This document shows, one piece after another, positions 19,157 to 41,545 of a DNA stretch of 64,000 nucleotides (position 1 is its first letter; the number at the start of each line of letters is the position of its first letter). The notes beneath the pieces were generated by a model. That model was not told the DNA's origin. It was given only the letters and a program-made list of their open reading frames with translations, and made no database searches. Both the position numbers and the translations under genes were made by a program. Source of the DNA: Thermodesulfobacteriota bacterium (GTDB taxonomy: Bacteria > Desulfobacterota > BSN033 > WVXP01 > G020346125); NCBI GenBank assembly GCA_041862515.1, contig JBGVTJ010000317.1, positions 1,890 through 65,889 of the forward strand. Direction: 5' to 3'.

Positions 19157-21307
19157 TTACTTCTCTCTTTTCCCCTCTTTTTCCTTTTCTTCCTGTAAGG
19201 CTTTTTTGGCTCGGTCGAGCTTGAATCTCCTTGAGCTATAAGGGGTCATGCGGGAGGTGAGATTCCACGGGCCGTTGAAACTCTTGCTCTTTTCGGCCGA
19301 TTTCTCCTCCATCCTTGCGATCATCTCCTTCTCCCGTCTTTCCTCTTCCGTCTCATCTGAAATGAACTTCCTTCCTTCCATCTCCTCCAACTCCAGCGGG
19401 TGGTGAAGCTTCATCTCTTCTTCCGAGATCTTCCCGGTAATTTTCGCCCAGTTCATGGGATAGACTTCAGGATCGAACATGACGGAATAGAGGTGCCAGA
19501 CGAGGATGGTCATGCTTGCCAGGATAGCCTCATAGAAATGAATTATCCTGGCCACGTTTACACCCCAACTGGGTAAAAAGAGGCTGAAGATCTTAGGATA
19601 CCAAAGGATGAATCCCGTGAGCGTCATGACTAAGGTTCCCCACAGACCCCCAAAGTATTCGATCTTCTCTATATAGCTGTACCGCCCAAATTTCGGTCGT
19701 TTATTTGATATACCGAGATCATATCCGATCAATTTCAAGGCATCCAGGAGGTCTTGGAAGACGGGGATCAGGGCTATCATGTGGCTCCGCCCTCTTTTGG
19801 TGGATATCATGTACAGGACATGGTAGACGCCGAGGAATACTGTTACCACTCCCGCTATCCTGTGGAGCAGACCCCTCATGGGGCTGGCAGGAGGGTGAAA
19901 GAAAATCCCTACCCACCACGCATCGGGATATTTCAGTGCGAACCCCGTGACCACCAAAACGATAAAGCTTACTGCCAGGACCCCATGTTGAACCCTTTCG
20001 TTAACGGTGAGTCTCTCGTAATACTTGACCCCTTCCCGTTTCCTGACTGCCAGCCACTTCCGGATGAAATCAATCCCCCCGTGGAAGTACATGAAGACGA
20101 TCACGAGGATGATCAGGATAATATAAAATACCCTCACCCAGGAAGCTACCTTGTCCCCGATGGGGCCGGCTCCCGTTGACGGCATAAAATGGACGGGAAA
20201 CATGGCGAAGTTCTCCGAAGCACCCGGGTGACAACTTCCACATGTTTTTACAAGGTTGGACTTATGGATTGTCGACTTTGGATCGCTGGATGGCCGTATA
20301 TCGTGAACCCCATGGCAACTGGCGCAGTTGGCCGCAACCACGTCTCCTCCCTTTCTGGCCAAACCGTGGTAACTATCCAAGTAGGACTTGACCTTGATGG
20401 TGGATACCCCGTATTCCCGGGTGATCCACTCCGCTCCGTGGCATTGGGGACAGGTGGTCATGGCAATCTTCTGTTCCGCAATCGAGGAATCCGGGTCAAC
20501 CTTGGCCTTGATGCTGTGGATACCATGGCAATCGGTACAGACGGGGGATCGTCCCACCCCCTTTTTCGCCGCAAGTCCGTGGACACTTCCCTCATATTCT
20601 CGAAAAGCCTCAGGATGACACTTTCCGCAGGTGGAGCAGACATTTTGACGGGAGATGAGGGATTTTGGGTCTAAGGGACTCTTCAGATTGTGGGGGCTGT
20701 GACAGTCGCTACAGGCAGCAGCTCCCTCAATACCCCTCTTAACGGCACGTCCGTGAACGCTTTCCTTGTAAATCATCCCGGGCAATACCCGATCGGGAAT
20801 TCCCCGGTGTTCCTTCACGAAGGCCACATCGGCGTGGCATCGATCACAGGTCTCCTCCAAATTCAGGGGGTTAACCTTTGACATAATGTGGCCTTGGGGG
20901 TAGACGTAATGATAGCCGTGGCAGTCGGGACACCGAGCCGAATCCACCACACCGCGTTTGACGGCCTCTGCATGGAGGCTCCCCTGGTAAACCTTTTCCA
21001 CTTCCTCATGGCATTGGCCGCAGTTGACCGGTTTGAGCCTCGCGGTATGTTCCGCCTCCATATCCTCCAGATCGGTATGGCAACCTACACATGAGACCTC
21101 TGCATGAACGGAGTTCTCCCAGTTCGCCTTGTCCACATATAAGGAAACCTCCCTTCCTGCATCATCAACCTTAACGAGCCCCTTATCGCTATGGCATTCG
21201 AAACAGAGGCTATCCTCCTTTGCCCAGAGATCCCCAGGAGTGAGGAAACATCCAATGGTCAATAACACCAACGTCAGGACCCGAAATTGTGGTTTTGTCC
21301 TTCCCAT
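19157..21307 (-). CDS. CbcL-like inner-membrane quinol oxidoreductase: periplasmic 11-haem cytochrome c fused to HydC/FdnI-type dihaem cytochrome b, with charged cytoplasmic tail
   Basis: 716 aa; signal peptide, 11 CxxCH motifs, then 4-TM His-rich cytochrome b domain, then glutamate/lysine-rich tail ending ...NGPWNLTSRMTPYSSRRFKLDRAKKALQ. Confidence 0.85.
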   Translation of the reverse strand: MGRTKPQFRVLTLVLLTIGCFLTPGDLWAKEDSLCFECHSDKGLVKVDDAGREVSLYVDKANWENSVHAEVSCVGCHTDLEDMEAEHTARLKPVNCGQCHEEVEKVYQGSLHAEAVKRGVVDSARCPDCHGYHYVYPQGHIMSKVNPLNLEETCDRCHADVAFVKEHRGIPDRVLPGMIYKESVHGRAVKRGIEGAAACSDCHSPHNLKSPLDPKSLISRQNVCSTCGKCHPEAFREYEGSVHGLAAKKGVGRSPVCTDCHGIHSIKAKVDPDSSIAEQKIAMTTCPQCHGAEWITREYGVSTIKVKSYLDSYHGLARKGGDVVAANCASCHGVHDIRPSSDPKSTIHKSNLVKTCGSCHPGASENFAMFPVHFMPSTGAGPIGDKVASWVRVFYIILIILVIVFMYFHGGIDFIRKWLAVRKREGVKYYERLTVNERVQHGVLAVSFIVLVVTGFALKYPDAWWVGIFFHPPASPMRGLLHRIAGVVTVFLGVYHVLYMISTKRGRSHMIALIPVFQDLLDALKLIGYDLGISNKRPKFGRYSYIEKIEYFGGLWGTLVMTLTGFILWYPKIFSLFLPSWGVNVARIIHFYEAILASMTILVWHLYSVMFDPEVYPMNWAKITGKISEEEMKLHHPLELEEMEGRKFISDETEEERREKEMIARMEEKSAEKSKSFNGPWNLTSRMTPYSSRRFKLDRAKKALQEEKEKEGKREK

Positions 21308-21599: not shown

Positions 21600-23123
21600 C
21601 TACGTGCGGGCTTTGACGTGAGATAGATATTCATGATCGTCCTGGACATTGCTGTTTTTTGGTGATCCTCCAGTTTTTCCCCGGAAGCAGTTAGGGTCTG
21701 GTCCAAAGAGGTCTCCGAAGTAGGTGTAGGCACGTGCCCTGCATCCTCCACAGATATCACGGATTGAACAACGCCCGCACCAGCCTCCGATATTCTCCCT
21801 GTTCCTCAGTTTTATCAAGACAGAGTTTTTAGTCCAGACTTCCGCGAGAGTTTTTTCCCGAATATTTCCGATCTTCAATGGAAGCATGTCGCAGGGCCTG
21901 ATAGAACCATCAGGATCAACCGAAAGGAGAGTGATGCCTGCAGAACACCCCTTGGAGAAAAAAGCGGCTCCCGCCTGGATGCGGCCATAGGGGAGGAGCT
22001 TCATTGCTCCCTTGACTAACTGGTTAAAGGAGAATTCCCTCAGTATTCTATCGGCAACGAGTGGGGCCTGGGGAGCCGTCGTCGATATCTCCAGGGGACT
22101 CTCCCCCAAGATCTTACAGCGGGTTTCAGCCATGGTGAGATGGAGCATCTTCCTTCTTTTTTCACCATCCAGATCCAGTTCAACTTCATTACCTCCGCGT
22201 CCGCTGGGAACAAAGTTGAAGATAATGATCCTCTTGCAGCCCAGTTCCTTGGCCATCTGAACGATTGCGGGGATCTCCCGGAAGTTCGCTTGGGTGGCTG
22301 TGATTGAGATTCCCGTGTCCAGACCTACGTCTACTGCATCTTGAATCCCTGCAATGGCCTTTTTCCAGCATCCCTTTCCGCGAAGGAAATCGTGGATTTC
22401 CGGGGAAACTGAATCGACACTGACTTTGACGTAGTCGAGACCAGCTTCCTTTAAGCAGCCAGCATTTTCGCGGGTAAGGAGGGTGCCATTGGTGATGAGA
22501 ACGGTGTAAAGTCCTTTTTGATGGGCCTCGTGAATCATTTCAGGCAAATCGGGAGCAGTCAGAGGCTCGCCGCCGGCAATCATAAGGGCGTTAGATCCCG
22601 CTTCCGCAACTTGCTGGATTAACTCAAGCTTCTCACCTCGGGTTAGTTCGTCTTTCATGGGGTTTTGATCGGCATCCACATGACAGTAAACACAACGAAG
22701 GTTACAGGATCGAGTAATTTCCCATACAAGGATAACCGGTGCCCCTGATGGCTGTGGAGTGGTTGCCCCGAACCGGCTGAATCCTCGAAGATAATTGAGA
22801 ATCAGATGGCGAGTGTGTTTTTCCGACAAGAGCGCCCTGAATACAGGACGGTCCACTCCGAGCCAGCCTCTCGGTATTTCCAAGAGAAATTGATACGCCA
22901 ACACTTCCAGGTAACAGAGCCAAGGAATAGAAATTTTGTTGTCTCCTTTTTCACCATAGTGAGCCATGGCCCTTTCCAGGTGATTGTCGCGACAGAGAGT
23001 GCATCGAGAGCTGGAGCTTCTCAAAAAGGACCGGAAAAGGGGGAAACCCGCCAACCGCTGTAAGCGTTCAATTGTCCCGAGGGTTGGGGTCGAGTAAAAG
23101 GACCGATTGGAGGATATTTTCAT
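21600..23123 (-). CDS. radical SAM / SPASM-domain enzyme with ~150-aa N-terminal extension (peptide or cofactor maturase, function unknown)
   Basis: 507 aa; CNLRCVYC (Cx3Cx2C) at ~res 155, C-terminal SPASM Cys cluster CGRCSIRDICGGCRARAY; N-terminal extension could be an RRE-like domain. Confidence 0.8.
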   Translation of the reverse strand: MKISSNRSFYSTPTLGTIERLQRLAGFPLFRSFLRSSSSRCTLCRDNHLERAMAHYGEKGDNKISIPWLCYLEVLAYQFLLEIPRGWLGVDRPVFRALLSEKHTRHLILNYLRGFSRFGATTPQPSGAPVILVWEITRSCNLRCVYCHVDADQNPMKDELTRGEKLELIQQVAEAGSNALMIAGGEPLTAPDLPEMIHEAHQKGLYTVLITNGTLLTRENAGCLKEAGLDYVKVSVDSVSPEIHDFLRGKGCWKKAIAGIQDAVDVGLDTGISITATQANFREIPAIVQMAKELGCKRIIIFNFVPSGRGGNEVELDLDGEKRRKMLHLTMAETRCKILGESPLEISTTAPQAPLVADRILREFSFNQLVKGAMKLLPYGRIQAGAAFFSKGCSAGITLLSVDPDGSIRPCDMLPLKIGNIREKTLAEVWTKNSVLIKLRNRENIGGWCGRCSIRDICGGCRARAYTYFGDLFGPDPNCFRGKTGGSPKNSNVQDDHEYLSHVKART

Positions 23124-25161: not shown

Positions 25162-25401
25162 TTATCTCGCCACCCTTACATTGGCCGCCCGGAAACCTTT
25201 AGGCCCCTTCTTCAACTTGAACTCCACATTGATACCGCTTTCCAAGACCTCGAAATCCTCTCCGTGCAGAGCGGAGTGATGGAAGAAGACATCCTCCCCA
25301 TTTTCCGTCTTGATGAAACCGAAACCCCGGAACCGGATAAGGCTCTTTATCTTACCTTTCAAACCTTTCATCTCCTTCCTTAAAGCATCTATTAGCTTCA
25401 A
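25162..25401 (-). CDS. cold-shock domain protein (CspA family)
   Basis: 79 aa; RFRGFGFIKTENGEDVFFHHSAL... CSD RNP motifs; ATGA-coupled to upstream STAS gene. Confidence 0.8.
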   Translation of the reverse strand: MKLIDALRKEMKGLKGKIKSLIRFRGFGFIKTENGEDVFFHHSALHGEDFEVLESGINVEFKLKKGPKGFRAANVRVAR

Positions 25402-25745
25402 TTTTGCCCTTCTAAGAGTCGAACGGCTTCCTTTGGATCATTTGTATGGCAAAATAGATCAAGAGTCTTAGAGGTTCTGAGTACCCTCTTCGCTGTTTCC
25501 TGCAAATTGAGCAGTATCAGATCTCCCCCCTTACTCCTGAGTATATTCGTCAATGAAAGAAGGACCTTAATTCCAGCACTGCTCAAAAAAGTGACACCTG
25601 AGCATTCAAGGATGATCTTTGTAGTTCTTCTCAATATTGGTTCAAGGCAGTCCTCTAGTTGCGACGCATAATAGGAATCTAGTCTTCCCTTTACTTTGAT
25701 GAGGTGAATGTCGTGTTCTTTGAGATATGAAATATCAAGATCCAT
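25398..25745 (-). CDS. second STAS-domain anti-sigma-factor antagonist (paralogue of 16788..17156)
   Basis: 115 aa; HLIKVKGRLDSYYASQLEDCL...GVTFLSSAGIKVLL closely parallels HLVKLEGRLDANFSSQLEDEI...EVTYLSSSGLRVLL. Confidence 0.85.
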   Translation of the reverse strand: MDLDISYLKEHDIHLIKVKGRLDSYYASQLEDCLEPILRRTTKIILECSGVTFLSSAGIKVLLSLTNILRSKGGDLILLNLQETAKRVLRTSKTLDLFCHTNDPKEAVRLLEGQN

Positions 25746-26526: not shown

Positions 26527-29190
26527 TCACGTGGGAGTCCTCAAGGATGCAAAAAGCAGAAGATAGACTGCACCATAGATACCCAAGAGGATTGCGTGGT
26601 AGGAGAAGATGTGGGAATTCCCCGGGGACCCGGTTGTCTCGCGCTCCATTGCTTGGATCTTGTACAGGATGTAGAGGGCCCATCCGATTCCGATGATGGT
26701 CAAAACAATCTGTACCGCCCATATGAGGTTTATGGTGATGATGGTAGATGAACTCTCTGTCCCGGCCGCAAATGGGATCTTAATCAACTGTAATGTCAGG
26801 CCGCTGCCCCCCGGCACATAGCGAAGATGATTGGCAAAATGACCACAGAGGGCCAGGGGGATAAAGGCGAAGCTGTAGCGGGTAACGTTCGTATCCGTTC
26901 CCGTTTTTTCTGCATCCCGATAGAAGACCAACCGGGGAAACTCCACGAGGAATAAGGAAAAGAAAACGATAATAACGAGGAGGATTGTGTAACCTTGGTC
27001 GGGAGTCAACCTTGGAAAGGGAAAAGCGGACTCAAGGAACAATCCAAATTGGGGCAAATCCGGCAAGATTTCCACAAACAGGAGGCTCGCCAGAAGGAGT
27101 GAAAAGAATGCTCCTCCTTTAACAGGTTTCGTTTGCGTCCATATCTCTTGTCCCGGCACACGCAAATTCAACTGGACCGACCTGTAAGGACAGTTTTGGA
27201 TGCAGTAGGTACAAACCCGGCAGCTCTGGTTATCTTCCAGGAAAAGGGGGTGGCGAAACATAGGGCATCCATAGGTCTTTCCCCCTTTGAAACATTCGTG
27301 GGTTTTGCACTCATTGATACAAACGTTGGTATTAGCTCGCACTTCCAGAATGGAGGCCATCGCATAGATTCCGCACATATTGCCAAGGGCACAGATGTAC
27401 CGACACCAGACTTTTCTTTCGAAGATGAGGCTGAAAATAATAGCTCCTAACGTAATGGATAGTAAGACGAACCCGGTAGGCAAGGGGAATTCACGGGCCC
27501 TCGTCACCTTCTCCAACCAGAGGATAAGCACGAAGAGAAAGGCGGGTAACCAGAGTTCCGTCCGCTTCAAGATTCCCGGGAGTTTCCGTTGAAGGCTGAA
27601 AAACCTCTGGATAAATCCTGAGACGGTCCCGATTGGACAGATAGCGCACCAGCTTCTGGCGGAGAAGAAGGAAAGGAGAAAGAGGCTCGGCCACCAAAGG
27701 GACAAGACCAGGATGTTGCCGATATTGTCCCCGCTTCCCCTCGGACCGAAGAAGAGCGAGTAAGATATGAAAACGAATACCACAACCGTGAAAGCACGGA
27801 CCAGATAGGGGTACATGCTGCTCTGGAAGTATCCTCGAACTAATGTGTTTCTGAGCAGGTTGTACTTTCCCCTTCCCTCAATGGAGGGAAGTCCCAGATA
27901 GATCTGATCGGGTACAATGGTATGCCCCTCGGTCAGGACGACGGCCCGTTCCACCACTTCTTCGAGTTCACCGACATTACCCGGGTATTGGTACGTGAGG
28001 AGGAGGTTCATCGCATCCGTTGAAACCCTTGGAATGGTCTTTCCCATTTGCCGAGCCGATTTTTGGGCGAAATGCTCAACCAATTCGGATATATCCCGTT
28101 TCCGTTTCCGCAAGGGGGGAACTTCGATATCAATACCCTCAAGTTGGTCCAGGAGTCCCTTGGAAAATGTTCCCCGTCTTGCCATTTCGGCGAGATCCAT
28201 CTCTGTAGTCGCGATCACCCGGACATCCGTCGAAAGCGTGTCCCCACCTCCAAGCCGTCGAAACTGTTTCCTCTCCATGAAGTCCGCCAACAGCCTCTGA
28301 GTGTCGTAAGGGAGCCTATCAACATTCTTCATGAGAAGAGTTCCCTTGTCGGCCAATTCCAGATAACCCAATCTCCGAGCGGTTGCCGTGGTAAAAGCCC
28401 CTCTTTCATATCCCACCAGCTCGGATCCCCAGGCCTCCCTCTTCAGCAATTCGCAATTGATGACGATGAATGGCTCCTCTTTTCTCTCCCCCTGATAGTG
28501 GATTGTGCGAGCCATCAATTCCTTGCCCGTTCCCCTCTCCCCCCGAATGAGGACGGGGTAGGAATTTGTGGAGGCCTTGCTCACGAGCTCCAAGACGGAA
28601 CGCATCTTCTTTGAACTGCCCACGGGACGGCTGTACCGAAACTCCTGTTCTTGACGGAGAAATCGGTTGAAGGCGACCTCCTTATCCCTGGCCTCTTCGA
28701 TCTGCTCATTAACCTTACGGATGCGCTGAGAGAGGATCGTAATGAAATGTCGATTAATGCCCGGATTGTCCTGTAATACCTCATCAAAATGCATTTTATA
28801 GAGGACCAGGACCTCCGTATCTTCAACCGCCTTGGTAGTAACTCCGCTCGGCTCGCCAGTTAATAATGACATCTCCCCAAAATAATCTCCAGTATGGTAG
28901 TCGGCGAGGATGATTTCCGCCCCCTCAACGTTGACCTCGATGGCCTGGACGTGCCCCTTCTTGATGATGTAGAGGCAGGCTACAGGAAGGTCCTTTTTGG
29001 TGATAAAAAGACCTTTAGGAATGTCTTCTACGAAAAGCCGTGAGGCTACCTTTTCCCTGGCCTCATGGGATATATCTTTAAATAAGCTAATCCCTTTAAG
29101 GAAATAGGCCAATTCCTTATTCTCGTTTTCCTGTAAGAATCTGTTAGGGGGTTGTTCAGTGGATTCCACCATATACTTATTCCCGAACAA
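26527..29190 (-). CDS. novel fusion: cNMP-binding domain + sigma-54-activator-type AAA+ domain (GAFTTA, Walker B DE->KN, no HTH) + NapH/MauN-type polyferredoxin membrane domain with two [4Fe-4S] motifs
   Basis: 887 aa; GDYFGEMSLLTGEPSGVTTKA (cNMP); GERGTGKE...GYERGAFTTATARRLGYLELADKGTLLMKNVD (EBP AAA+); ~10 TM helices with WCAICP and WCRYIC motifs, CINECKTHEC and CRVCTYCIQNCP ferredoxin motifs; no Fis-type HTH. Confidence 0.8.
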   Translation of the reverse strand: MFGNKYMVESTEQPPNRFLQENENKELAYFLKGISLFKDISHEAREKVASRLFVEDIPKGLFITKKDLPVACLYIIKKGHVQAIEVNVEGAEIILADYHTGDYFGEMSLLTGEPSGVTTKAVEDTEVLVLYKMHFDEVLQDNPGINRHFITILSQRIRKVNEQIEEARDKEVAFNRFLRQEQEFRYSRPVGSSKKMRSVLELVSKASTNSYPVLIRGERGTGKELMARTIHYQGERKEEPFIVINCELLKREAWGSELVGYERGAFTTATARRLGYLELADKGTLLMKNVDRLPYDTQRLLADFMERKQFRRLGGGDTLSTDVRVIATTEMDLAEMARRGTFSKGLLDQLEGIDIEVPPLRKRKRDISELVEHFAQKSARQMGKTIPRVSTDAMNLLLTYQYPGNVGELEEVVERAVVLTEGHTIVPDQIYLGLPSIEGRGKYNLLRNTLVRGYFQSSMYPYLVRAFTVVVFVFISYSLFFGPRGSGDNIGNILVLSLWWPSLFLLSFFSARSWCAICPIGTVSGFIQRFFSLQRKLPGILKRTELWLPAFLFVLILWLEKVTRAREFPLPTGFVLLSITLGAIIFSLIFERKVWCRYICALGNMCGIYAMASILEVRANTNVCINECKTHECFKGGKTYGCPMFRHPLFLEDNQSCRVCTYCIQNCPYRSVQLNLRVPGQEIWTQTKPVKGGAFFSLLLASLLFVEILPDLPQFGLFLESAFPFPRLTPDQGYTILLVIIVFFSLFLVEFPRLVFYRDAEKTGTDTNVTRYSFAFIPLALCGHFANHLRYVPGGSGLTLQLIKIPFAAGTESSSTIITINLIWAVQIVLTIIGIGWALYILYKIQAMERETTGSPGNSHIFSYHAILLGIYGAVYLLLFASLRTPT

Positions 29191-30877: not shown

Positions 30878-32857
30878 TCATTGCCTTCCTGAGATAAGGA
30901 CCTCTACAACGGATGGATCGGCCAGGGTGGAAGTATCGCCCAAATTGTCGATATCCCCCTCGGCTATCTTTCGCAAGATTCTCCTCATGATCTTTCCGCT
31001 TCGAGTCTTGGGCAGGGCATCTGCAAAATGGATCTTATCCGGTGTGGCAATGGGACCAATTTCCTTACGGACATGGCCTACCAAGGTTTTCTTTAAATTT
31101 TCCGCTTTTTCAACACCGGATTTCAGCGTCACAAAGGCATAAATCCCTTGCCCCTTGATATCATGGGCAAACCCCACGACAGCCGCTTCGGCTACGAATG
31201 AATGGGAGACGAGGGCACTTTCGATCTCCGCCGTACCGAGGCGATGTCCCGACACGTTGATGACGTCGTCCACCCTTCCCATTAACCAGAAATAGCCATC
31301 CTCATCCCTTCGCGCTCCATCTCCCGTGAAGTACATCCCCGGAAATTGGGAAAAATAGGTTTCCCTGAATCTCTCTGGATCGCCATAGACGGTCCGCATA
31401 ATCCCCGGCCACGGTTTGCGAACGCAGAGATAGCCCCCTTCATTGATGCGAGATTCCGATCCATCCTCCCGGACCACAACGGTATCAATACCGGGAAAGG
31501 GAAACGTTGCGGACCCTGGCTTGATGGGAATTGCACCAGGAAGAGGACTGATGATGCTTCCCCCCGTTTCCGTCTGCCAATAGGTATCCATGATAGGACA
31601 CCTCCCCCCCCCGATCACGTTGTAATACCACATCCAGGCCTCCGGGTTGATGGGCTCGCCGACCGTTCCCAGAATTCGGAGGCTGCTCAAATCCCTTTTC
31701 CGCGGCCAATCATCCCCTTCCCGCGCAAGGGCCCGGATGGCGGTAGGCGCCGTGTAGAAAATGTTTACCTTGTATTTTTCCACGATCTCCCAAAAGCGAT
31801 CGGGATTGGGATATGTGGGAACGCCCTCGAACATCACGCTCGTAGCCCCTAATGCTAAGGGACCATAGACGATATAGCTATGCCCGGTGACCCACCCAAT
31901 ATCGGCTGTGCACCAATAGGTGTCTTCATCCTTAACGTCGAAGATCCATTTCGTGGTCTGCAATGCGTAGAGGAGATACCCACCGGTGGTATGGAGCACC
32001 CCTTTTGGTTTACCGGTACTCCCGCTGGTATAGAGGATGAACAGTGGATCTTCGGCATCCATGTCCTCGGGCTCGCAGTGTGGCTTGATATCTTCAGCAG
32101 CCATCTCTTCCTCCCACCAGCTATCCCTTTCCTTTTCCATATTGACATCGATACCTGATCGTTTGCATACGATACATGCTTCAACACTGGGACATTCCCG
32201 CAGGGCGATGTCCGCATTCTGCTTGAGGCCGATAACCTTCCCGCCGCGAAAGCTACCATCGGTGGTGACCAGGAGTTTGGCCCCGCAGTCCAATATTCGA
32301 TCCCTCAATGATTCGGCGCTGAAACCCCCGAAGACCACGCTATGGATCACCCCGATTCGAGCGCAAGCTAACATCGCGATGGGAAGTTCAGGGACCATGG
32401 GCATATACAGGGCAACTCTGTCACCCTTCTTAAGTCCCTTCTTCTTCAGAACATTGGCAAACTTACAGACCTCATGGTGGAGCTGCTGGTAGGTATAGAC
32501 CCTACTTTCCCCATTCCGTTCTCCTTCCCAAATGATCGCGGCTTTGTTCTTCCGCCAAGTCTGAAGATGTCGATCGAGGCAGTTGTAAGCGGCATTTAAC
32601 TTTCCCCCGCCAAACCACCGAATAACACCTTGCGAGAAATCCCCTCCCGCGACCTCGTTCCATTCCCTAAACCATTCCAATTGCCTCGCCTTCTCGGCCC
32701 AGAAGCCTTCAGGATCCTCGATGGACCTCTTATAGATCTCCCTGTATTCATCGAAAGTTTTCACATGAGCCTCTGCGGTGAGAGCCTTTGGAGGGTTAAA
32801 TACCCGGGTCTCGTCCATCACTGAATCAAATGCCTTCTTTTCCTGCGCCATAGCCAA
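30878..32857 (-). CDS. acs: acetyl-CoA synthetase (acetate--CoA ligase)
   Basis: 659 aa; AMP-binding motifs [11 protein letters not shown], canonical Acs N- and C-termini. Confidence 0.93.
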
Positions 32858-33337
32858 AACCTCCTCTTCTCTGCTGCTATAAAAAGATTAAAATATACCA
32901 CACATTTCTTCCCTTTCAAGCTAATCATTCTGGAATTTTTGAGTTTTCCCAGTGGCTTTGTCGTATCGCCTCGGTGCCTTCGAGTTGACTCTTTTGAGTT
33001 CGAAAGCAGGAGAAAGTGTTAACTATAACTTAACAAATTTGTGCCGCGTTCTTCAAGAGTAAGTGCAGGAAAGCAGGGGCTTTTTCCATGAAAATATGGT
33101 TTGTTCTGTCCTCCATTTTTGCTCCAGGGTTTCGGCAGGGGACTGTAGAGAAGGGATGATCCTGAGATTTTCCGACTAGTGGGATCGGAGAGGGCTTCTC
33201 CTTTCGGAAAGAGCTCGCAAGGGAGAGAGCTACCGGAATTATTGAGTACTGGGTGACATATGATCGAAGAGGGGAACTCTGGATTCCAAAGGCCCCTTCT
33301 GGTAACGAATTTGGATATACCATTAATATCTGACTGG

Positions 33338-33667
33338 CTATTTCTTTTTCAATATCTCCTTCGCCCTGAACAATTGGAAGAGCTTGGAACTATATGGTTT
33401 TACCTTGGGAGTAAGGGTCCAGGGGCCTTTGAATTCTCTTCTTCGCTCCTCTCTCAGCGTTTCTGCCTGAGCTATCAGGGCTTCCTCTTTGTCACCGATG
33501 GTGACTATTCGAAGCTTTTTTTCGATATACTCTAGAATGGATACCACTAAGAGAGCCACTGCCCCTATAGAAACAACGATGGCCAAGACTGCCACGCCAA
33601 AGACGAGCAGAATGGTAAACGCCCACCAGAGTAAGTTCATGTGCTTGCTCCCTTTTAGGGTTCCCAA
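33338..33667 (-). CDS. small membrane protein (2 TM) with conserved C-terminal GPWxLT...PYSS...F.L.RAK tail motif
   Basis: 109-aa ORF (probable start MNLLWWAF at 33640); tail REFKGPWTLTPKVKPYSSKLFQLFRAKEILKKK matches C-terminus of cytochrome 19157..21307. Confidence 0.6.
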   Translation of the reverse strand: MGTLKGSKHMNLLWWAFTILLVFGVAVLAIVVSIGAVALLVVSILEYIEKKLRIVTIGDKEEALIAQAETLREERRREFKGPWTLTPKVKPYSSKLFQLFRAKEILKKK

Positions 33668-33743
33668 CTGAACCTATACGTTTTGACCGAAAATAGGTCT
33701 TAATCTTCTTGTTTCCCCAGGAACTGTATGATGGGAAACCGAA

Positions 33744-34400
33744 CTATTTGAACCTCTTCTCGCCACAGCGTATAGCCGTATCCAAGGTATTCTCGTCATT
33801 TGCATAGGGGCACGTGTACTTCGGGTTATAAGCACAATAAGGATTGGAGGCCTTATTGAAATCGATAATAACACGTTTCTCCCCTACACATTCCACCTCT
33901 AAATATCGCCCATTTTCATAGGTTTCCAAACCGTTGGTCTTATCCTTGAAGGGAAGAAAGAAATTGGGCCTCCCCAAGTGTCGGTAGATTGTGAGGACGA
34001 ATTCTCGACCGTCAATGCTAAATCTGAATTTTCCCTCTTTGACATATTTCCGAAAATTACCCTTGCTGGTGGGAAGGTTGATGTATTCGGTGCGGCCTTT
34101 GGGGTTCCTTTCGATCTCTCCCGTGAACACATATCGGAAATCTATGGGATAGTAGTCCAGTTTTTTGAAATCGATGATATCCTGAGCTCTCAGTGGGGAC
34201 TTGGGGTTTTCCTTAAAAAATCGGTCTTTTTCGACCCTCTCCTCCTCGATCTCTTTCTGCCTGGATTGGAGCAGATTTGAATCAAACTCCTCGGTTAAAG
34301 CCAGAACCTGAAGAGGGAGAATGAGATTTGTCCCTACCAAAAGGTATTTTATCCACTTTTTCCCGGTTCCTCCGCTTTTTTTCGGCTTTTTCAATACCAT
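33744..34400 (-). CDS. secreted DUF1684-like protein, paralogue A (family assignment tentative)
   Basis: 218 aa, signal peptide; shares RDRFFKE..SPL, YYPID, IPFRDKTNG, TYEGGRYL, DFNxAxNPxCxYN with 40846..41481. Confidence 0.7.
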   Translation of the reverse strand: MVLKKPKKSGGTGKKWIKYLLVGTNLILPLQVLALTEEFDSNLLQSRQKEIEEERVEKDRFFKENPKSPLRAQDIIDFKKLDYYPIDFRYVFTGEIERNPKGRTEYINLPTSKGNFRKYVKEGKFRFSIDGREFVLTIYRHLGRPNFFLPFKDKTNGLETYENGRYLEVECVGEKRVIIDFNKASNPYCAYNPKYTCPYANDENTLDTAIRCGEKRFK

Positions 34401-34504
34401 TCTTTGGCTTTATCAAGGGAAATTGGGTGGCTTTGTTGAAAAGGTGAGGGCATTTGGTATCACACTCGTGCCCACCGTGAACCGGTACGACGAATCTCAA
34501 ATCC

Positions 34505-34756
34505 TCAAATTTCCTTCCCAATCCGCGTAATCTTGATCCATAGAGTCTTGATAAGATAAGCGATGGCCATGGATAGCAAGCCAAAAATCATGATCGTCAC
34601 TGCCGCGCCATAGAGGAATTTCCCCAAATTTACGTTCCCGGTAAATAGTAACCCCTTGAGGTATATCGCTGCCGTAATGAGGATAAAAATGCAGAACCCC
34701 AGGAAGAGGCTATAGTAAATCCACCAGAAAAATGACCTCATATTCCTTCCATTCAT
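34505..34756 (-). CDS. hypothetical small 2-TM membrane protein
   Basis: 83-aa ORF between cytochrome and DUF1684-like gene, two hydrophobic helices. Confidence 0.45.
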   Translation of the reverse strand: MNGRNMRSFFWWIYYSLFLGFCIFILITAAIYLKGLLFTGNVNLGKFLYGAAVTIMIFGLLSMAIAYLIKTLWIKITRIGKEI

Positions 34757-34796
34757 CGTGACATCAAGTCATCGATATTGAAGCCTCATATCCAGG

Positions 34797-36947
34797 TTAT
34801 TCCTTCTTGCCCAGCATAGGTTCTATCTGATCTAGATTCTTCTTGGCAGCCTCGATCAGTTCCGCTGCATACTCCAGGTTATGGACCCCTTTACCCTCTC
34901 CCACCAGACTAATATTGTATTCGGCATCTCCGAACAATTTGGTAAAGGCGAAGGTGTGCTGTCCCCTTTTCTCCAATCTTTGGATATGTTCCTTTATCCT
35001 TTTCAGCTTTGAAGAGGTTCTCTTGAGCAATTCATCCGCCGTTGACTTCCAATCTTCGGCCATCTTCCCGTAACTTTCATCATGGCACTTGATGCAGGTG
35101 GCCCTGATGGCCTTGAAGGATTCCTTCTGTCCTTCAGCGATACTGCGGTGGCAATCCACGCATTCCACCACATCGACTTTGATGCTGGGTAGGTCTTCGA
35201 CACCGATGCCAGTTTTCCCGGAAAAAAGCCTTTTTACGCTCAGGTGACAATCCCCACACGCTACCTTTCCCGCCCCATCGCCATGGTGGCACTCAGCGCA
35301 ATTCTTCAAGTACGTTTTGCCATGGTTCTCCCTGGGGGAGTGACAGTTGCGGCATTGCAAATCCATCCCCATGTGGACATCATGGGGGAATTGGATCTCA
35401 TTGAAGGGAACGGTACGTCGCTCTAACCCCACGTGGCAAAGGCTTGTACACGTATATTCCGTTTTATACTCCTTGAGCTGATACCCGTCCTCGATGAGGG
35501 TCAGGGCCTTTTCCATATTATTGTTGGCATGGTTCAAGAGCTTCAGAGCGTATTCGATGTTGTGAACCCCCTTGCCCATGAGGGAAAACGTATAGTTGTA
35601 CCTGGCCTCGTTGATAAGATTTTGGGCTTTCTTGAAGCGTTGACCCTCCAGCCCCGCTTTACCCGCTTCGTATAGCTTCTTTTGAGCATTAAATATTCGG
35701 CTGTTGACCTCATTCTCCGCCTTAACTAGGAGCTCCTTCCAATGGAAGAGCATCTCGTCGTAACCCTCCCCATGACATCCCACGCAGGACTCGGCTAAGG
35801 CCCTTTCCGAATATTTTGTCGTATATAAAGCCGCCTTGCTCTCCTCTCGGGTTTTGTGGCATCCCACACAATCCACTCTGATGGTGAACATCTTGCTCGG
35901 TGAATCGGTGACACCGATCCCTCCGATTCCCGTGTACATCTCCTTAGGTCCCCTATGCATCTGTTCTATATGACAGTGATTACAACTCTCCGTAAACTTC
36001 GCCATGGTGGGCATTTCCCCGACTTCGTGTCTTATTTCGGTGTGACATCGATAGCATTCGATTTTGTGATCGGTGACGTGCATTCGATGGGTAAATTCCG
36101 ATGTATATTTCGTCGCGAGAAGATTGGGCTCATTATGGCACTCCAGGCACTTATTCTCAGGGACGTGGCCATCGCCTTTATTGTGGCCTACGTGGCACTC
36201 AAGACAGCTCACTCCCCGCTCGATGTATCGCTTGTGGTTGAAGCTTATCCCCTTGACCGAGAGTTCGCCCTTTGGCTGGATATGGCATGCACCACATTCC
36301 GCGCAGGAGAGGCAATCCTCTTCACCCAGAGTTCCTGCCTTATAGAAGTGACAGATGAAGCAGTCCGTTTCCGTAACGGTTAAATGAGCGCCTTGAACGA
36401 TTTGGGCGTGGCACGTAGTACAGCGCAGTTTCTTCCCCCTTCTCAACTCCTCCAGATGTTTTCCGTGGTCAAAGGCCACGTTCTTGAAGACCATTTTTTC
36501 CTTTAAATCCTCACTGCGGTGACATCCCTTCTGAAGACAGCTGGCGTCACTGATCTCCGCATGAGGCATAGTCGGCCCTTTGCCGGTGATAAACATGACC
36601 AGGGAAACCTGTCCATCCTTCCATTTTCCCTTCAAATGGTTGAAAAAGCCGGGTTCATAATGACATCCGGCACAGGGAACGAAGTTGTGGGTGGACGTCT
36701 TCCAGGAATCTACGTACACCTTCATGTTATGGCAGAGATTGCAGAAGGTAGGAGTTTCGGTGAATTTGTACATAGTCCCAGCCAGAAATATCAGGATGAA
36801 AAGACAGATGCCGAGGAACAGGGTGACCCCCTTCTTGTGTTCCTTCGTCCCCCGGTAGGTCTCCTTCCAAAAGGAGATCCAGAAGTTAGAGACGTATTTA
36901 AACAGATCACCTAAGGTCCTAAATCCACGTCTGATTAAGCTTCCCAT
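34797..36947 (-). CDS. NapC/NirT-family membrane-anchored multihaem cytochrome c (~17-18 haem motifs)
   Basis: 716 aa; N-terminal TM then CNLCHNMKVY (NapC/NirT signature), ~16 CxxCH plus CX4CH (CLQKGCH) and CX3CH (CTSLCH) motifs. Confidence 0.85.
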   Translation of the reverse strand: MGSLIRRGFRTLGDLFKYVSNFWISFWKETYRGTKEHKKGVTLFLGICLFILIFLAGTMYKFTETPTFCNLCHNMKVYVDSWKTSTHNFVPCAGCHYEPGFFNHLKGKWKDGQVSLVMFITGKGPTMPHAEISDASCLQKGCHRSEDLKEKMVFKNVAFDHGKHLEELRRGKKLRCTTCHAQIVQGAHLTVTETDCFICHFYKAGTLGEEDCLSCAECGACHIQPKGELSVKGISFNHKRYIERGVSCLECHVGHNKGDGHVPENKCLECHNEPNLLATKYTSEFTHRMHVTDHKIECYRCHTEIRHEVGEMPTMAKFTESCNHCHIEQMHRGPKEMYTGIGGIGVTDSPSKMFTIRVDCVGCHKTREESKAALYTTKYSERALAESCVGCHGEGYDEMLFHWKELLVKAENEVNSRIFNAQKKLYEAGKAGLEGQRFKKAQNLINEARYNYTFSLMGKGVHNIEYALKLLNHANNNMEKALTLIEDGYQLKEYKTEYTCTSLCHVGLERRTVPFNEIQFPHDVHMGMDLQCRNCHSPRENHGKTYLKNCAECHHGDGAGKVACGDCHLSVKRLFSGKTGIGVEDLPSIKVDVVECVDCHRSIAEGQKESFKAIRATCIKCHDESYGKMAEDWKSTADELLKRTSSKLKRIKEHIQRLEKRGQHTFAFTKLFGDAEYNISLVGEGKGVHNLEYAAELIEAAKKNLDQIEPMLGKKE

Positions 36948-37124
36948 AGTCCCCTCTTATGTTAGTGAAGATGAATCAAATTCCTCCTATCCAGAATTTT
37001 CCTGGGTTTCAATCCCCCATGATTTATCTTGACCGGATCGTTAAGATAATGTAGTTAACTACATTTGTCAACGGATTTTTCCGAATTCTTTCGTCTATGT
37101 GGAGCGTTTGGTGAGGTGTAGGAG

Positions 37125-38732
37125 ATGGAACTGAAATTCGTCGTGTGGCCGTTGGTGGGCTCATTTTTCCTTTTGACTATTGGTTCCCACGCCGCAAAAG
37201 GGGCTCAGCAAAGGCGTGATTTGACCATTGTTTACACCAACGATGTCCTCGGCGAAATTGAGCCCTGTGGATGATTTAAAAACCCCCTTGGCGGTGTCGC
37301 CAAGAAGGCAACGATAATCAAGGGGATGAAGGAGGAGGGGAGAAACCTCCTAGTGGTTGACGCCGGGAATATGCTCTTTCGAAAGCCCCCAACTTCTCAA
37401 GAGCGGAGAAAAGAAGCCCTGTTGAAGGTTAACGTCCTCCTCAGAGCGTATGAAGAGATGGGCTATTCCGCCGTCAACATAGGGGAGAAGGATTTAACCT
37501 TGGGCCTTGGATTCTTGGGTGAGGTAGCGAGAAGAACGAAGTTCCCCTTCATTTCAGCAAACTTGATCGACAAAAAAAGTCGAAAGACCGTTTTCAGGCC
37601 CTTTATAACGGAGGAGATCGCGGGAATAAAGGTCGGCGTAATCGGGTTGATGGGCCGTTGGGTCAATGAGGTGCTTAAGGAAAAAGAGCCATATTTGGAG
37701 GTTCTGGATCCCCTTGACGCGGGTAAACCCTATGTGACGGAGTTACGGAAAACCTGTGACCTCGTCAGCGTGCTATCCCAACTAGGGGAGCGGGGCGATA
37801 GGGAATTAGCCTTGAAGGTCCCTGGCATCGATATTATCGTCGGGGGGAAGCGGGGTAAGAGGATTAGGTATTCGAAGATCAGAGAGACCCTCATGTACCG
37901 CCTGGAACCCCGTGGGGGGTATTTGGGGAAGCTGGATTTATCTCTGGCCCGAAAAGGCAAGCCGCTAAACCTAACCGATTATGAACAAAGGGAGCGCATT
38001 GTTAAGAAAATGGAGACCATCCAGAAGCGATGGATGGAAATAAAGAGCGAAATAGAAGGGGACAGCGGAAAATCTCCCTCCAAGAGGGAGGTGAGAGTGA
38101 AGGAACTGGCTATCCTGGAAAGAAGGGGAATGGAACTCCAACTGCGCCTAGTGGACTTCGACCAGAGGAATCTCTATAAGAATGAGGTCATCCCCATCAA
38201 GTTGGCCATCCCAGATGATCCGGTTATCGGCGAGATGATTGATGGATACGGGATAGAGGTGGCAAAGCTCTATGGAATTGAGCGAACCCTTGAGAGAGGC
38301 CCGGGAAAACCCCCATCCGATGCTCAAATTTTGGCCGGCATCTCGAAGAGCAGTTCTTACCAGGGGGCGATCTCGTGTAAAAAATGCCACAGACGAAATT
38401 TCGAAGCCTGGTCCACTACCGAACATGCCAAAGCGACCCAGACGATATCTGAGGCTTTCAAAAAGGGGCGGCCGTTGGAGGATTGTCTCATCTGCCATAC
38501 GACCGGTTATGGGGATATCAGGGAATATCGGTTTGTACAAGAGGTTCCCCTTTATCTTCGGGGGGTACAGTGCGAGGCTTGCCACGGGGTGGGAAAAGGG
38601 CACCCGGGGTTTGGAGCCAAATTCAGGAGGGTCACCTTAGGGGTCTGCCGCAACTGCCATACGAAGGATCAATCTCCTGCCTTTCACTACAAGAGCTATC
38701 TGCTCCGAATCGGCTGCACCATTCGGAAATGA
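37125..38732 (+). CDS. candidate selenoprotein: signal peptide + degenerate metallophosphatase/5'-nucleotidase-like domain with Cys-Gly-Sec (TGA at 37272..37274) + C-terminal tetrahaem cytochrome c
   Basis: ATG 37125 with AGGAG RBS; MELKFVVWPLVGSFFLLTIGSHAAKG...LTIVYTNDVLGEIEPCG-TGA-FKNPLGGVAKKATIIKG... continuous in the same frame into the 37326..38732 ORF; SECIS-like hairpin 12 nt after TGA; CKKCH, CLICH, CEACH, CRNCH at C-terminus. Confidence 0.6.
37287..37304 (+). ncRNA. SECIS-like stem-loop (CUUGGCG-GUGU-CGCCAAG) 12 nt downstream of in-frame UGA
   Basis: Perfect 7-bp stem, GU-containing tetraloop, spacing similar to E. coli fdhF SECIS (~11 nt). Confidence 0.5.
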
Positions 38733-38741
38733 TCCTACCGT

Positions 38742-40664
38742 TTATCTCAGAAATGCCCATATGATGAGCAGCAGGGCGATCAACCCTACAAATATCGCTC
38801 CGAAACCGGAGAGCTGCCCCCAGAGGTAGGTAAGAATGGCGGGGTGTTTGGCCTTAAAGGTTTCGAGTTTTCCCTCGGCGACTAGCCTATCATAGTGCCC
38901 CGGCCGATCATCGATGAATTCCACCTTGGGAAATCTCCCGGTGAAGATGCCCACGTCCAGAGGAAATTTCTCGGGTCTGAAATGGACGTTGAAAAAATGA
39001 GCGGTAAAAACATAACCGGCAGCCAGGAGGGCCTCGTCTGAATGGATGATATAGGCAATATTAAAGACCCATCCGGGGAGAAAGATCGAGAAGAAGTCGG
39101 GGAACCACAACATCAAGCCTGTAAGCCCTATGGCTAACATCCCCCAAAAAACCGCCAGGAAATCGAATTTCTCCCAGTAAGTCCACCGATCGAACCGAGG
39201 TTTGGGGCCCTTTCCGAAAAACCACTTGAACATTCCCTTCATATCCTTCACGTCCTGCCATCTCGGTGCCAGGGAGTCTGGACCGAAGAGTCTCTGTAAA
39301 GGATTCCCCTTCACATCCTTCCGGTAGAAAGTGAAATAAACGATATTCACCAAAACTGCGCCGAAGTAGGCGAAGGTAATGACCGCGCAGAATCGGTGAA
39401 TATCGCCAGCGATACGGGCTCCGCCAAACAACTTCACCAGCTCCTTGGCCCAGAGTGAGTGAGCGAATTTCAGGGGAAGGCCCGTCAAGACCAAGAGGAT
39501 AAAGGTTACCATCATGATGAAGTGGATGACGATGTCGAAGTTATCGAACCTCTGATAAATCTCCCCCGATTTTTCCACGTAAGGTGGCAGGTATTCCCCT
39601 GCTGCCCACATCTTCCTCTTCTCCCGATAGGCCCGTTGCCACCACATGATGGAGTGAAACCACCAGAAGGCAAAAACGGAAAGCAGTAAGGCTGTCATGA
39701 AGACGAAGGCAGAATAGAGGAAGGGATAGTTCTCCTTGTCGTAGTGATTGGCATGGGCATACCACTGCACGAAATTTGCATTGGCCTTGGTGTGACATTT
39801 GCCACAGGTTTCGACAAGCCTATTCTTGGAAATGGTCGAACTGGGATTGTCGGATTTCAAGGCGCTGTGGTAGCCATGGCAATCGGCACAACCCGCCACA
39901 AAGATAGGATACCCCAGGTATTCTACCTTGCCGTGATAGCTCTCCTCGTAGGTTTCGTTTGCGATGAGCACGACCTTATTGCGCCTCATCATCTCCTCAT
40001 CGGCATGGCATTTCTGGCAAACCGCCGTATGGAAGTTGCGCCGAAATTCGATGTTCTCAGGCTCCTCCCCCGACAGGATGGGGATTTTATGAAGCCCGTG
40101 ACAATCCGAGCAGTCCGCCGAGTCCCTGTTCCCAGCATAGACCGCTTCCCCGTGGATGCTTTCCGAATACCCATCATCATCGTGGCATATCGTGCACGTT
40201 TTGATTACCCTAGCTTTGTCATCCCCCCAGGGTGTGATTTCATGGATCTTCACATGGCAGTCCGGACACCTCACATCATTGATGAAGTGGGAGCTGGCGT
40301 AGTGTTCGGCCCCCTCGACTTTGTGGCACCGATGACAGGTGACCGACTCGGCTTGGATTCTTCCCCCCTTTGCCGTGTGTTCCTCGATATCAGTGATATC
40401 CCAGTGGCAGCTATTACAGGAATTGGCCCCGTGGACCGACTTGGCGAATTTGGTCTCATCGACAGTTTCATGGCACTCCAGGCATTTTGAGTTGTCGATA
40501 CATTCCAAACAGTACTCCCGCCCCCTGATTTTAAACTTCTTCTTGGCCAGCTCAAGTTCCTCATGGAATTTCAATTGCTGAGCGGAACTGGTCACGAGAA
40601 GGGAGAAAAGGGATAGGAAGAGGAGGAGAGATGAAAGAAAAGAAATCTTCAGTCTCGATCGCAT
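38742..40664 (-). CDS. CbcL-like inner-membrane quinol oxidoreductase: 9-haem cytochrome c + HydC/FdnI-type cytochrome b
   Basis: 640 aa; signal peptide; 9 CxxCH; C-terminal 4-5 TM His-containing cytochrome b domain. Confidence 0.85.
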   Translation of the reverse strand: MRSRLKISFLSSLLLFLSLFSLLVTSSAQQLKFHEELELAKKKFKIRGREYCLECIDNSKCLECHETVDETKFAKSVHGANSCNSCHWDITDIEEHTAKGGRIQAESVTCHRCHKVEGAEHYASSHFINDVRCPDCHVKIHEITPWGDDKARVIKTCTICHDDDGYSESIHGEAVYAGNRDSADCSDCHGLHKIPILSGEEPENIEFRRNFHTAVCQKCHADEEMMRRNKVVLIANETYEESYHGKVEYLGYPIFVAGCADCHGYHSALKSDNPSSTISKNRLVETCGKCHTKANANFVQWYAHANHYDKENYPFLYSAFVFMTALLLSVFAFWWFHSIMWWQRAYREKRKMWAAGEYLPPYVEKSGEIYQRFDNFDIVIHFIMMVTFILLVLTGLPLKFAHSLWAKELVKLFGGARIAGDIHRFCAVITFAYFGAVLVNIVYFTFYRKDVKGNPLQRLFGPDSLAPRWQDVKDMKGMFKWFFGKGPKPRFDRWTYWEKFDFLAVFWGMLAIGLTGLMLWFPDFFSIFLPGWVFNIAYIIHSDEALLAAGYVFTAHFFNVHFRPEKFPLDVGIFTGRFPKVEFIDDRPGHYDRLVAEGKLETFKAKHPAILTYLWGQLSGFGAIFVGLIALLLIIWAFLR

Positions 40665-40845
40665 CGGTGATATCCTGTATTTTGAAAAAAAAATTCACAA
40701 ATGAACCGGGAGACACTTAGCAAATATAATACCCTTTGTCAAGGGGAAATCTCAAGGCAAGCCCATTGTTCAAGCCATACAAAAGCATACGGATACTCTT
40801 GGTTGTTTCCCCAGTCCCAGTATCAAGAGATTAGATTCGCTCCGA

Positions 40846-41481
40846 CTATTCGAATTTCTTCTCCCCGGCCTTAATCTCCAAGTCGAAATTATTCTCCTCC
40901 GGAGGAATGATACAGATAAACTTCTCGTTATAAACACAGGAGGGGTTGTAGGCCATATTGAAGTCGAGGATCGTTCTATAACCCGGCATGATGATTTCTG
41001 CATCCAGGTAGCGTCCTCCCTCGTAGGTTCCATCTCCATTGGTCTTATCCCTGAAGGGGATGAAGAGGTGGTCGCTCCCGGGGGATTTATAGAGCTGAAT
41101 AGTGAATTCCTTGCCATTGATCTGAAATCGGAACCTTCCGTATCGAATGTATCTCTTCTTTATTCCCTTGTTGGTTAGGAAATTGGCGTAGTATTTCGGG
41201 TTCATGATGTGGTACTTATATCGTTCGATGTTTCCCTCGAGGCGATACTTCAGGTCAATGGGATAATAAGCCAACCCTTTAAAGTTACTACGGTGTGAAT
41301 CATCCAAAGGTGACCGAGAATGTTCCTTAAAAAATCGGTCCCTCCCCTCCCTAAAGTCCCTGATGCGCTGAATGTTCTGTTGGTCGGGTTTCTCCAGAGG
41401 ATGACCCAGTGCGCTCCAAAGGGATGTGATCATAAGAAGAAGGACCCCGGTGAAAAGCTTTGAGCCTAATCTCGCAACCAT
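40846..41481 (-). CDS. secreted DUF1684-like protein, paralogue B (family assignment tentative)
   Basis: 211 aa; signal peptide; conserved blocks shared with 33744..34400. Confidence 0.7.
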   Translation of the reverse strand: MVARLGSKLFTGVLLLMITSLWSALGHPLEKPDQQNIQRIRDFREGRDRFFKEHSRSPLDDSHRSNFKGLAYYPIDLKYRLEGNIERYKYHIMNPKYYANFLTNKGIKKRYIRYGRFRFQINGKEFTIQLYKSPGSDHLFIPFRDKTNGDGTYEGGRYLDAEIIMPGYRTILDFNMAYNPSCVYNEKFICIIPPEENNFDLEIKAGEKKFE

Positions 41482-41545
41482 ACTTCATCTCCTTCCTTAT
41501 TATATTTCCAGGAATCCGGATCTTGGTACCCTCGCAGCATAGACA

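Follow-up and report, generated by a model that had tools for sequence, protein, structure and literature searches.

A C-terminal tail module shared by unrelated quinone-linked membrane proteins in an uncultured Thermodesulfobacteriota lineage

The C-terminal pentapeptide NWETF of the high-abundance chemoreceptors Tar and Tsr recruits CheR and CheB, and both the C-terminal peptide of FtsZ and the C-terminal tip of SSB combine a linker with a conserved docking peptide that is a hub for several partners. In Geobacter sulfurreducens, the inner-membrane quinol oxidoreductase CbcL is a fusion of a periplasmic multihaem c domain with a dihaem cytochrome b of the HydC/FdnI type. To our knowledge, little is known in cytochrome-rich anaerobes about the regulation or connections of inner-membrane quinol dehydrogenases at their cytoplasmic face. 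We analysed 64,000 nucleotides from a Thermodesulfobacteriota bacterium (contig JBGVTJ010000317.1, positions 1,890 to 65,889; this whole stretch is called the window, and coordinates refer to it unless a locus is named) and find that a small membrane protein and a CbcL-like cytochrome encoded in it end in the same previously undescribed module of ~50 residues, cytoplasmic by its predicted topology. The module is selectively maintained and has been joined independently to three unrelated quinone-linked membrane anchors: an FdnI/HydC-type cytochrome b; in relatives, a subunit of the NrfD/PsrC type with 10 transmembrane (TM) helices; and a stand-alone single-TM miniprotein encoded in an NrfH-like/DUF1684 gene cluster. 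The two carriers in the window and the parts of their open reading frames (ORFs) are as follows.

33338..33640, minus strand: gene of the small membrane protein, 100 residues, stop codon included in the coordinates (ORF, ATG at 33640, ribosome-binding site, homologues, ratio of nonsynonymous to synonymous substitution rates (dN/dS), AlphaFold2)
33533..33637, minus strand: hydrophobic segment of the small protein, residues 2-36, its membrane anchor (hydropathy scan and AlphaFold2)
33341..33502, minus strand: tail module of the small protein, residues 47-100, with IVTIG, a helix rich in Glu, Arg and Lys (E/R/K), the GPWTLTPKVKPYSS loop and a short amphipathic helix (alignments A1, A2 and A3)
33359-33427, minus strand: core motif, copy 1, at the end of ORF 33338-33667 (regular expression on the six-frame translation)
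19157..21307, minus strand: CbcL-like cytochrome, 716 residues, with signal peptide, 11 CxxCH motifs, a TM helix, a 4-TM FdnI/HydC-type cytochrome b domain and the tail (Pfam, motifs, AlphaFold2)
19160..19348, minus strand: tail module of the cytochrome, residues 654-716, with E/R/K helix 654-676, the GPWNLTSRMTPYSS loop and helix 693-715 (BLASTP and AlphaFold2)
19205-19273, minus strand: core motif, copy 2, at the end of ORF 19157-21307, 716 residues (regular expression on the six-frame translation)

The tail starts with an E/R/K-rich helix of ~20-25 residues, followed by a loop of the form G-P-W-x-L-x5-P-Y-x-S and a short amphipathic helix with F-x-L-x2-A-K-x2-L. This layout may be likened to the chemoreceptor tether, in which a short conserved motif also stands behind a spacer at the cytoplasmic C-terminus of a membrane protein, on some paralogues only; it differs from that tether in that there is no sequence similarity, the tail motif extends over ~30 residues, the spacer is a helical E/R/K segment rather than a disordered linker, and the carriers are respiratory. 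The succession of a body, a variable or charged linker and a conserved terminal peptide is similarly reminiscent of FtsZ and SSB, and the low AlphaFold2 confidence at the most conserved residues of the tail would fit a motif that folds on binding. However, FtsZ and SSB are soluble and universal and have experimentally defined partners, whereas the tail module is membrane-tethered and belongs to one lineage.

The polytopic carriers are ordinary members of the CbcL-like and NrfD families, and the new part is the tail. The cytochrome resembles CbcL in architecture, having a signal peptide, a multihaem c domain and a Ni_hydr_CYTB domain. It carries, in the same polypeptide, the FdnI-type 4-TM domain and the N-terminal periplasmic multihaem c domain of CbcL-like cytochromes: Pfam Ni_hydr_CYTB matches residues 437-615 (E-value, E, 7.9e-15), several multihaem Pfam families match as well, and the 11 CxxCH motifs lie between residues 35 and 360, after a signal-peptide-like N-terminus. 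The match to the NCBIfam model of the formate dehydrogenase gamma subunit has an E of 8.6e-18 yet falls below the family cut-off. Unlike CbcL, this carrier has 11 CxxCH motifs together with the clade-specific GPW…PY tail. The third carrier resembles the NrfD/PsrC family (HmcC, DsrP, NrfD, PsrC) in its match to Pfam NrfD and in the genes that come after it, for a 4Fe-4S protein and a c7-type cytochrome. We know of no described NrfD/PsrC member with this C-terminal tail.

The pattern GPW.LT-x4-PYSS-x2-F.L.RAK was found in identical spacing at exactly two sites in the six-frame translation of the whole window, and the same regular-expression search detected no third copy there. The initial annotation of this DNA had proposed the shared motif, its spacing and its positions, and had called for such a pattern search; in the window the search returns these two copies only. 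Comparison of the small protein with the cytochrome by BLASTP gives a single significant segment, ungapped, with 20/44 identical residues (45%) and 30/44 positive (E 4e-12), which begins ~18 residues before GPW, within the charged helix. The tails of the two proteins are homologous. The annotation had also allowed that the motif might occur at random frequency, or only through recent duplication of one gene fragment. A chance match is ruled out by the pairwise E-values and by an exhaustive profile search, described below, in which only 12 clusters match. The DNA of the two tails is 48% identical over 46 aligned codons, and the same codon is used at only 5 of the 20 residues that are identical between them. 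Third codon positions (24% identical) are thus random between the two copies, and the duplication cannot have been recent; the grouping of tails by carrier, shown below, likewise rules it out.

We built a profile (A2) from the small-protein and cytochrome tails and scored it with HMMER against all 1.84e9 protein cluster representatives (E ≤ 1e-3). The profile matches 12 clusters only, all from uncultured sediment bacteria. In complete proteins the match is C-terminal and follows a membrane domain, with the exception of P0160, in which a dehydrogenase domain comes next in frame. Some of the clusters are fragments of the small-protein and cytochrome families. All identifiable hosts of the 12 clusters are either one of the three carrier types or other single-TM miniproteins; two of these miniproteins, P0156 and P0160, carry the tail on unrelated anchors. 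P0161 (457 residues) and P0164 represent the third carrier type; both are polytopic and belong to the NrfD/PsrC family (Pfam NrfD, E 5.3e-27). P0161 and its counterpart at loci L015 and L016 have an NrfD domain, ~10 hydrophobic segments and an adjacent 4Fe-4S gene, and the scores of this carrier against the HmcC, DsrP and NrfD equivalog models are far below the cut-offs. In BLASTP comparisons, the tail of the NrfD type shares 65% identity with that of the cytochrome (34 residues, E 4e-12) and 56% with that of the small protein (32 residues, E 1e-10), and outside the tail there is no similarity between this carrier and either of the other two. The suggestion that the motif links otherwise unrelated respiratory membrane proteins is strengthened by a third unrelated carrier, a 10-TM NrfD/PsrC-type subunit, with homology among the small protein, the cytochrome and the NrfD type restricted to the tail. 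At locus L011 (475-1839), a single-TM tail protein reads in frame into an NAD-dependent D-2-hydroxyacid dehydrogenase, giving 454 residues in total; this may be a genuine fusion or the result of a lost stop codon, and it adjoins a Mutator-family transposase fragment on a single short contig.

In the alignment of 29 tails from the three carriers (A3), the G, P and W and the P of PY are invariant, and conservation of L, Y, A and K is 90% or higher. The 29 tails group by carrier type in a neighbour-joining tree, which indicates that each fusion is old and has evolved with its own host protein. The small gene was found, using the small-protein alignment, in 3 of 185,579 GTDB species genomes, which are metagenome-assembled genomes labelled Syntrophobacterales, Pseudomonadota and Thermodesulfobacteriota. 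A word-indexed search with the tail profile returned 21 short proteins only and missed the long carriers. The contigs of P0161, P0164, P0156 and P0160 are too short for gene context, and the informative loci for the NrfD type, L015 and L016, come from a metagenome scan. The tail is confined to a narrow uncultured lineage of Thermodesulfobacteriota. The small protein belongs to no Pfam family and no NCBIfam family, a PDB profile search with alignment A3 gave no match at E ≤ 10, and a Foldseek search of the PDB with the small-protein model gave none either. The tail is a sequence family absent from Pfam, NCBIfam and the PDB, new but narrowly distributed.

Among cytochromes, the tail is present in 19 family matches of 65-88% identity, the other close matches being truncated or frameshifted. 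It is absent from every homologue of ≤55% identity among the matches listed; these tail-less proteins stop after the family-wide …EEEM..EHPLELE… segment and have unrelated charged ends. Judged by these homologues, the tail is therefore a clade-specific add-on and not a feature of the CbcL family.

The small ORF, whose expression might have been doubted, has the properties of a real gene. A ribosome-binding site, GGGAG, lies at 33648-33652, 7 nucleotides upstream of the ATG at 33640, and 31 of 33 homologues (58-99% identity) have 100 or 105 residues, the other two having 89 and 70. For these reasons the start is most likely the ATG at 33640, and the protein has 100 rather than the 109 residues first assigned to it. 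The ratio dN/dS is ~0.1-0.6 in 55 of 56 pairwise comparisons (8 orthologues, membrane and tail halves), the remaining value, for a TM region, being 0.99. Taken with the ribosome-binding site and the conserved length, these ratios point to a real gene under purifying selection, and the possibility that the ORF is a decaying remnant is ruled out on the same grounds. The invariant positions of the small protein cluster in its tail (G72, P73, W74, L76, V80, P82, Y83, S85, K86, A93, K94). AlphaFold2 predicts helices at residues 3-46, 50-69 and 86-99 with a loop at 70-85 (mean predicted local distance difference test score, pLDDT, 78.9; predicted template-modelling score, pTM, 0.33). The anchor is modelled as one continuous helix, 3-46, with block-mean pLDDT of 87-96 over residues 1-40, so that the protein probably has 1 TM helix instead of the 2-TM hairpin originally suggested. 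This TM segment is dissimilar to the last helices of the other carriers in pairwise BLASTP comparisons.

The tails follow membrane domains on the cytoplasmic side, as had been predicted. The cytochrome has 5 TM helices after its periplasmic haem domain, with the K/R-rich loops, 417-437 and after 503, on one side; the NrfD-type carrier has ~10 hydrophobic segments, a K/R-rich N-terminus and loop charges that alternate as the positive-inside rule requires. The number of TM helices and these loop charges thus place the tail of both polytopic carriers, by prediction, in the cytoplasm. The dehydrogenase read in frame at L011 is a cytoplasmic type of enzyme, a weak pointer to the same side. In the AlphaFold2 models of both window carriers (mean pLDDT 79.7 for the cytochrome), confidence is lowest in the invariant GPW…P loop, between flanking helices that are modelled with confidence: the block mean is 56 at residues 71-80 of the small protein, and within loop 677-692 of the cytochrome it is <50 at residues 681-690. 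The helix upstream of the loop, of 20-23 residues, is 50-58% E/R/K, with block-mean pLDDT of 76 in the small protein and 64-81 in the cytochrome. Compared with ER/K single alpha-helix spacers, it is predicted to be helical yet is short and includes hydrophobic L, I and A residues.

We propose that the tail is a tethered docking module for a common putative cytoplasmic partner of quinol-dehydrogenase modules, an interpretation to which we assign a probability of roughly 0.4. The E/R/K-rich helix would serve as a spacer, holding the terminal motif at a distance from the membrane; the motif itself would act as a docking peptide for one common cytoplasmic partner, which may be a regulator, an accessory protein or a maturation factor and would be recruited to whichever quinol-dehydrogenase module the cell has. 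Invariant residues in a low-confidence loop between helices are the signature expected of a peptide that folds on binding. Docking of the tail onto the protein that carries it is unlikely, given that cytochrome b and NrfD have unrelated folds. If one cytoplasmic module is found on three structurally unrelated quinone-linked proteins, this argues for a shared cytoplasmic interaction, and a peptide of ~30-50 residues with an invariant G-P-W…P is a small, concrete handle for a partner search; its narrow distribution (12 clusters in 1.84 billion proteins) limits the immediate reach of the finding.

The genes around the small protein offer a reason why a tail might be supplied as a separate protein. 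On the minus strand, the small-tail gene is the last of a cluster that begins with the following three genes, in this order.

34797..36947, minus strand: NapC/NirT/NrfH-type membrane-anchored multihaem cytochrome, 716 residues, 16 CxxCH motifs, one N-terminal TM helix, first gene of the cluster (Pfam Cytochrom_NNT, residues 41-184)
34505..34756, minus strand: ORF of 83 residues with 2 TM helices, between the NrfH-like cytochrome and DUF1684 (ORF list and conservation)
33744..34400, minus strand: DUF1684 protein, 218 residues, with an N-terminal signal or anchor, immediately upstream of the small-tail gene (Pfam DUF1684, E 7e-40)

The first of these matches the NCBIfam NrfH-like model with an E of 4e-18, under the family cut-off. 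An NrfH-type cytochrome, with one N-terminal anchor and an N-in, C-out orientation, would be unable to carry a cytoplasmic C-terminal tail; this would explain why the miniprotein exists as a separate TM-plus-tail protein, which would supply the tail in trans for the NrfH-type cytochrome. The cluster order is retained in relatives L001-L007, L013 and L014. The gene next upstream of the small gene encodes DUF1684 in L002-L008, L013 and L014 (in L001 the gene call is broken at this point and DUF1684 was undetected), and the pair holds even in the most distant homologue, L008 (58% identity), whose upstream cytochrome differs. The 83-residue ORF has no Pfam or NCBIfam match; it is 64-82% identical in L001-L007 and L013, and a 96-residue counterpart follows the same cytochrome in L017.

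The cluster is part of a variable respiratory-module slot, the stretch between dsbD (41546-43498) and acs (30878-32857), which corresponds to 32858-41545 in the window. Here the slot holds a DUF1684 gene, a CbcL-like cytochrome of 640 residues, a c554-like cytochrome, the NrfH-like cytochrome, the 83-residue ORF, the second DUF1684 gene and the small-tail gene. In L016, the same slot (9700-12880) reads DsbD, NrfD-tail protein, 4Fe-4S protein (Fer4_11, immediately downstream), triheme c7 and acs. The relative represented by L015 and L016 is 86% identical to the window in acs, 74-81% in DsbD and 78% in the AAA+ protein described below. The respiratory module has been exchanged in the slot, and a tail-bearing membrane protein is present in both versions. 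That the tail persists when the module is replaced argues for a shared cytoplasmic interaction.

As an extension of this proposal, the tail could be a lineage-specific address label that plugs interchangeable quinol-dehydrogenase modules, whether of the cytochrome b type, the NrfD type or, through the miniprotein, the NrfH type, into one shared cytoplasmic device for sensing or controlling electron flow. We consider this stronger version unlikely. If true, this would amount to a hitherto undescribed docking code for respiratory modules, and might allow electron flow to be sensed or controlled in any module that the cell had acquired. Candidate devices are the AAA+/NapH-like protein at 26527-29190 and the partner-switching proteins. 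An AAA+ orthologue is found within ~3-5 kilobases of all three carrier types (in the window, L015 and L017/L018), a proximity that is suggestive only and could be inherited gene order, the genomes being related. The AAA+ protein itself (26527-29190, minus strand, 887 residues) combines a cNMP-binding domain, a sigma54-interaction AAA+ domain with a GAFTTA loop and a C-terminal NapH-like membrane polyferredoxin domain (Fer4_5, several CxxC), with no DNA-binding domain detected. Sigma54 promoters that would tie it to the tail operons are ruled out: TGGCAC-N5-TTGCW with ≤2 mismatches gave 23 hits against 20.4 expected, none of them upstream of the relevant operons. The other neighbours of the tail-bearing cytochrome that recur are the following.

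17167-19110, plus strand: HAMP/SpoIIE phosphatase, convergent with the tail-bearing cytochrome
25398-25745, minus strand: STAS protein
21600-23123, minus strand: radical-SAM/SPASM protein

The order of genes differs in L017 and L018, but the phosphatase and STAS genes are linked to the cytochrome in both, and the radical-SAM/SPASM gene in L017.

Several observations weigh against a docking role, and the first three of them temper every functional reading of the tail. L017 has the NrfH-like cytochrome without a small-tail gene, and a second CbcL-like paralogue in the window itself (38742-40664, minus strand, 640 residues, 9 CxxCH) lacks the tail, so not every quinol module has one. In metagenome contig L019, a deletion of 77 nucleotides at ~1730 (window ~19287-19363), in the purine-rich region encoding the charged helix, frameshifts the cytochrome tail away (protein P0044); in all other respects the stretch compared is 100% identical to the window. 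The cytochrome tail of P0045 is similarly frameshifted. Such variants mean either that some strains can do without the tail or that the assemblies are at fault. As for gene neighbourhood, the tail genes are associated solely with the AAA+ protein, acs and the partner-switching genes, in related genomes in which synteny may be inherited. Finally, the tail could be a small autonomous fold, helix-aromatic loop-helix, rather than a docking peptide.

Other functions of the tail have to be weighed against docking to a common partner. If tails bound one another helix to helix, quinol-dehydrogenase modules, or the miniprotein and its cytochrome, would be clustered into a supercomplex. Conserved hydrophobic residues form a short stripe on each of the two helices (L55/I56/A59/L62 and L90/A93/L97), the genome of the window encodes two tail-bearing proteins, and carriers sharing the module would occupy the same membrane. 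However, the stripes span only about two helical turns, with no extended heptad pattern (alignment A1), the invariant residues are in the loop rather than the helices, and the model of the small protein, with its pTM of 0.33, shows no confident helix packing; self-association is thus rather unlikely in our estimate. A different expectation follows from the aromatic and basic residues of the terminal segment, which mixes W, Y, F and L with K and R (GPW…PY…F.L.RAK): the segment might fold back on the inner leaflet and stabilise or position its carrier without a protein partner. The terminal helix is indeed amphipathic (best 11-residue hydrophobic moment 0.47-0.56), and the helix after the loop has a net charge of +5 in 3 of 4 representative tails. 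But this charge is not conserved, being -1 in the 65%-identity cytochrome group, the terminal helix is hydrophilic on average (mean hydrophobicity -0.3 to -0.5), and a long charged spacer that projects the motif outward is hard to reconcile with surface binding, which we regard as quite unlikely.

The tail might also be a regulatory handle, a site of modification or turnover for partner-switching proteins (SpoIIE-type phosphatase, STAS, RsbW-like kinase) or for an AAA+ protease. Through rearrangements, the cytochrome has kept the convergent SpoIIE/HAMP phosphatase gene and the STAS genes as neighbours (window, L017, L018 and L019), and the motif contains Ser/Thr (PY[ST]S). Those serines vary, however: 3 of 29 tails have Pro at the second, and N, T, E, G or V takes the place of the first in others; no partner-switching gene lies next to the small-tail or the NrfD-tail genes; and the C-termini are variable in length and highly charged, unlike typical ClpXP-type tags as we know them. 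We therefore hold such a handle to be improbable. That the tail has no function, the similarity being due to chance or the small ORF being a decaying fragment of a tail-bearing gene, is effectively refuted. The small gene does lie at the edge of a variable region, the gene sets between dsbD and acs differ among relatives, and frameshifted tail variants exist; against this stand the pairwise E-values of 4e-12 and 1e-10, the mere 12 matching clusters in 1.84e9 proteins, the conserved length, ribosome-binding site and dN/dS well below 1 (55/56 comparisons) of a gene with homologues down to 58% identity, and a TM segment unrelated to the last helices of the carriers.

Two described kinds of C-terminal signal were also compared with the tail. 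A classical sorting signal, one of the options first raised, is unlikely: the motif follows the membrane anchor, it has no hydrophobic segment behind it and it is on the predicted cytoplasmic side, which rules out LPXTG, PEP-CTERM and GlyGly-CTERM types. MifM, SecM and VemP are monitoring substrates with C-terminal translation-arrest peptides, and the miniprotein is superficially like MifM in having ~100 residues, an N-terminal TM segment and a conserved C-terminal motif. An arrest peptide of the MifM/SecM type was rejected, since no Sec/YidC gene lies downstream, acs being 480 base pairs away, and the motif also ends proteins of 457 and 716 residues; the cytochrome gene has a convergent neighbour and no co-oriented gene downstream.

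The gap of 480 base pairs between the small-tail gene and acs (32858-33337) contains no conserved ORF and no Rfam match, and an RNA element in or near the locus was rejected, as the whole window has no Rfam match at the gathering threshold. In L004, L005 and L013, three extra genes occupy this gap, encoding a multihaem cytochrome of 401 residues, an ORF of 108 residues and a paralogue, of 117 residues, of the 83-residue ORF, which suggests a deletion in the lineage of the window. The tail-less cytochrome paralogue of 640 residues ends in an extra hydrophobic helix (residues 614-640), which would put its C-terminus in the periplasm. DUF1684, for which there are solved structures (2LNU, 2LOK) and no known function, is represented twice, at 33744-34400 and 40846-41481, both on the minus strand. 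The two paralogues are ~40-44% identical, and each has a signal or anchor sequence and lies in a cytochrome operon, the former directly upstream of the small-tail gene and the latter directly upstream of the tail-less cytochrome.

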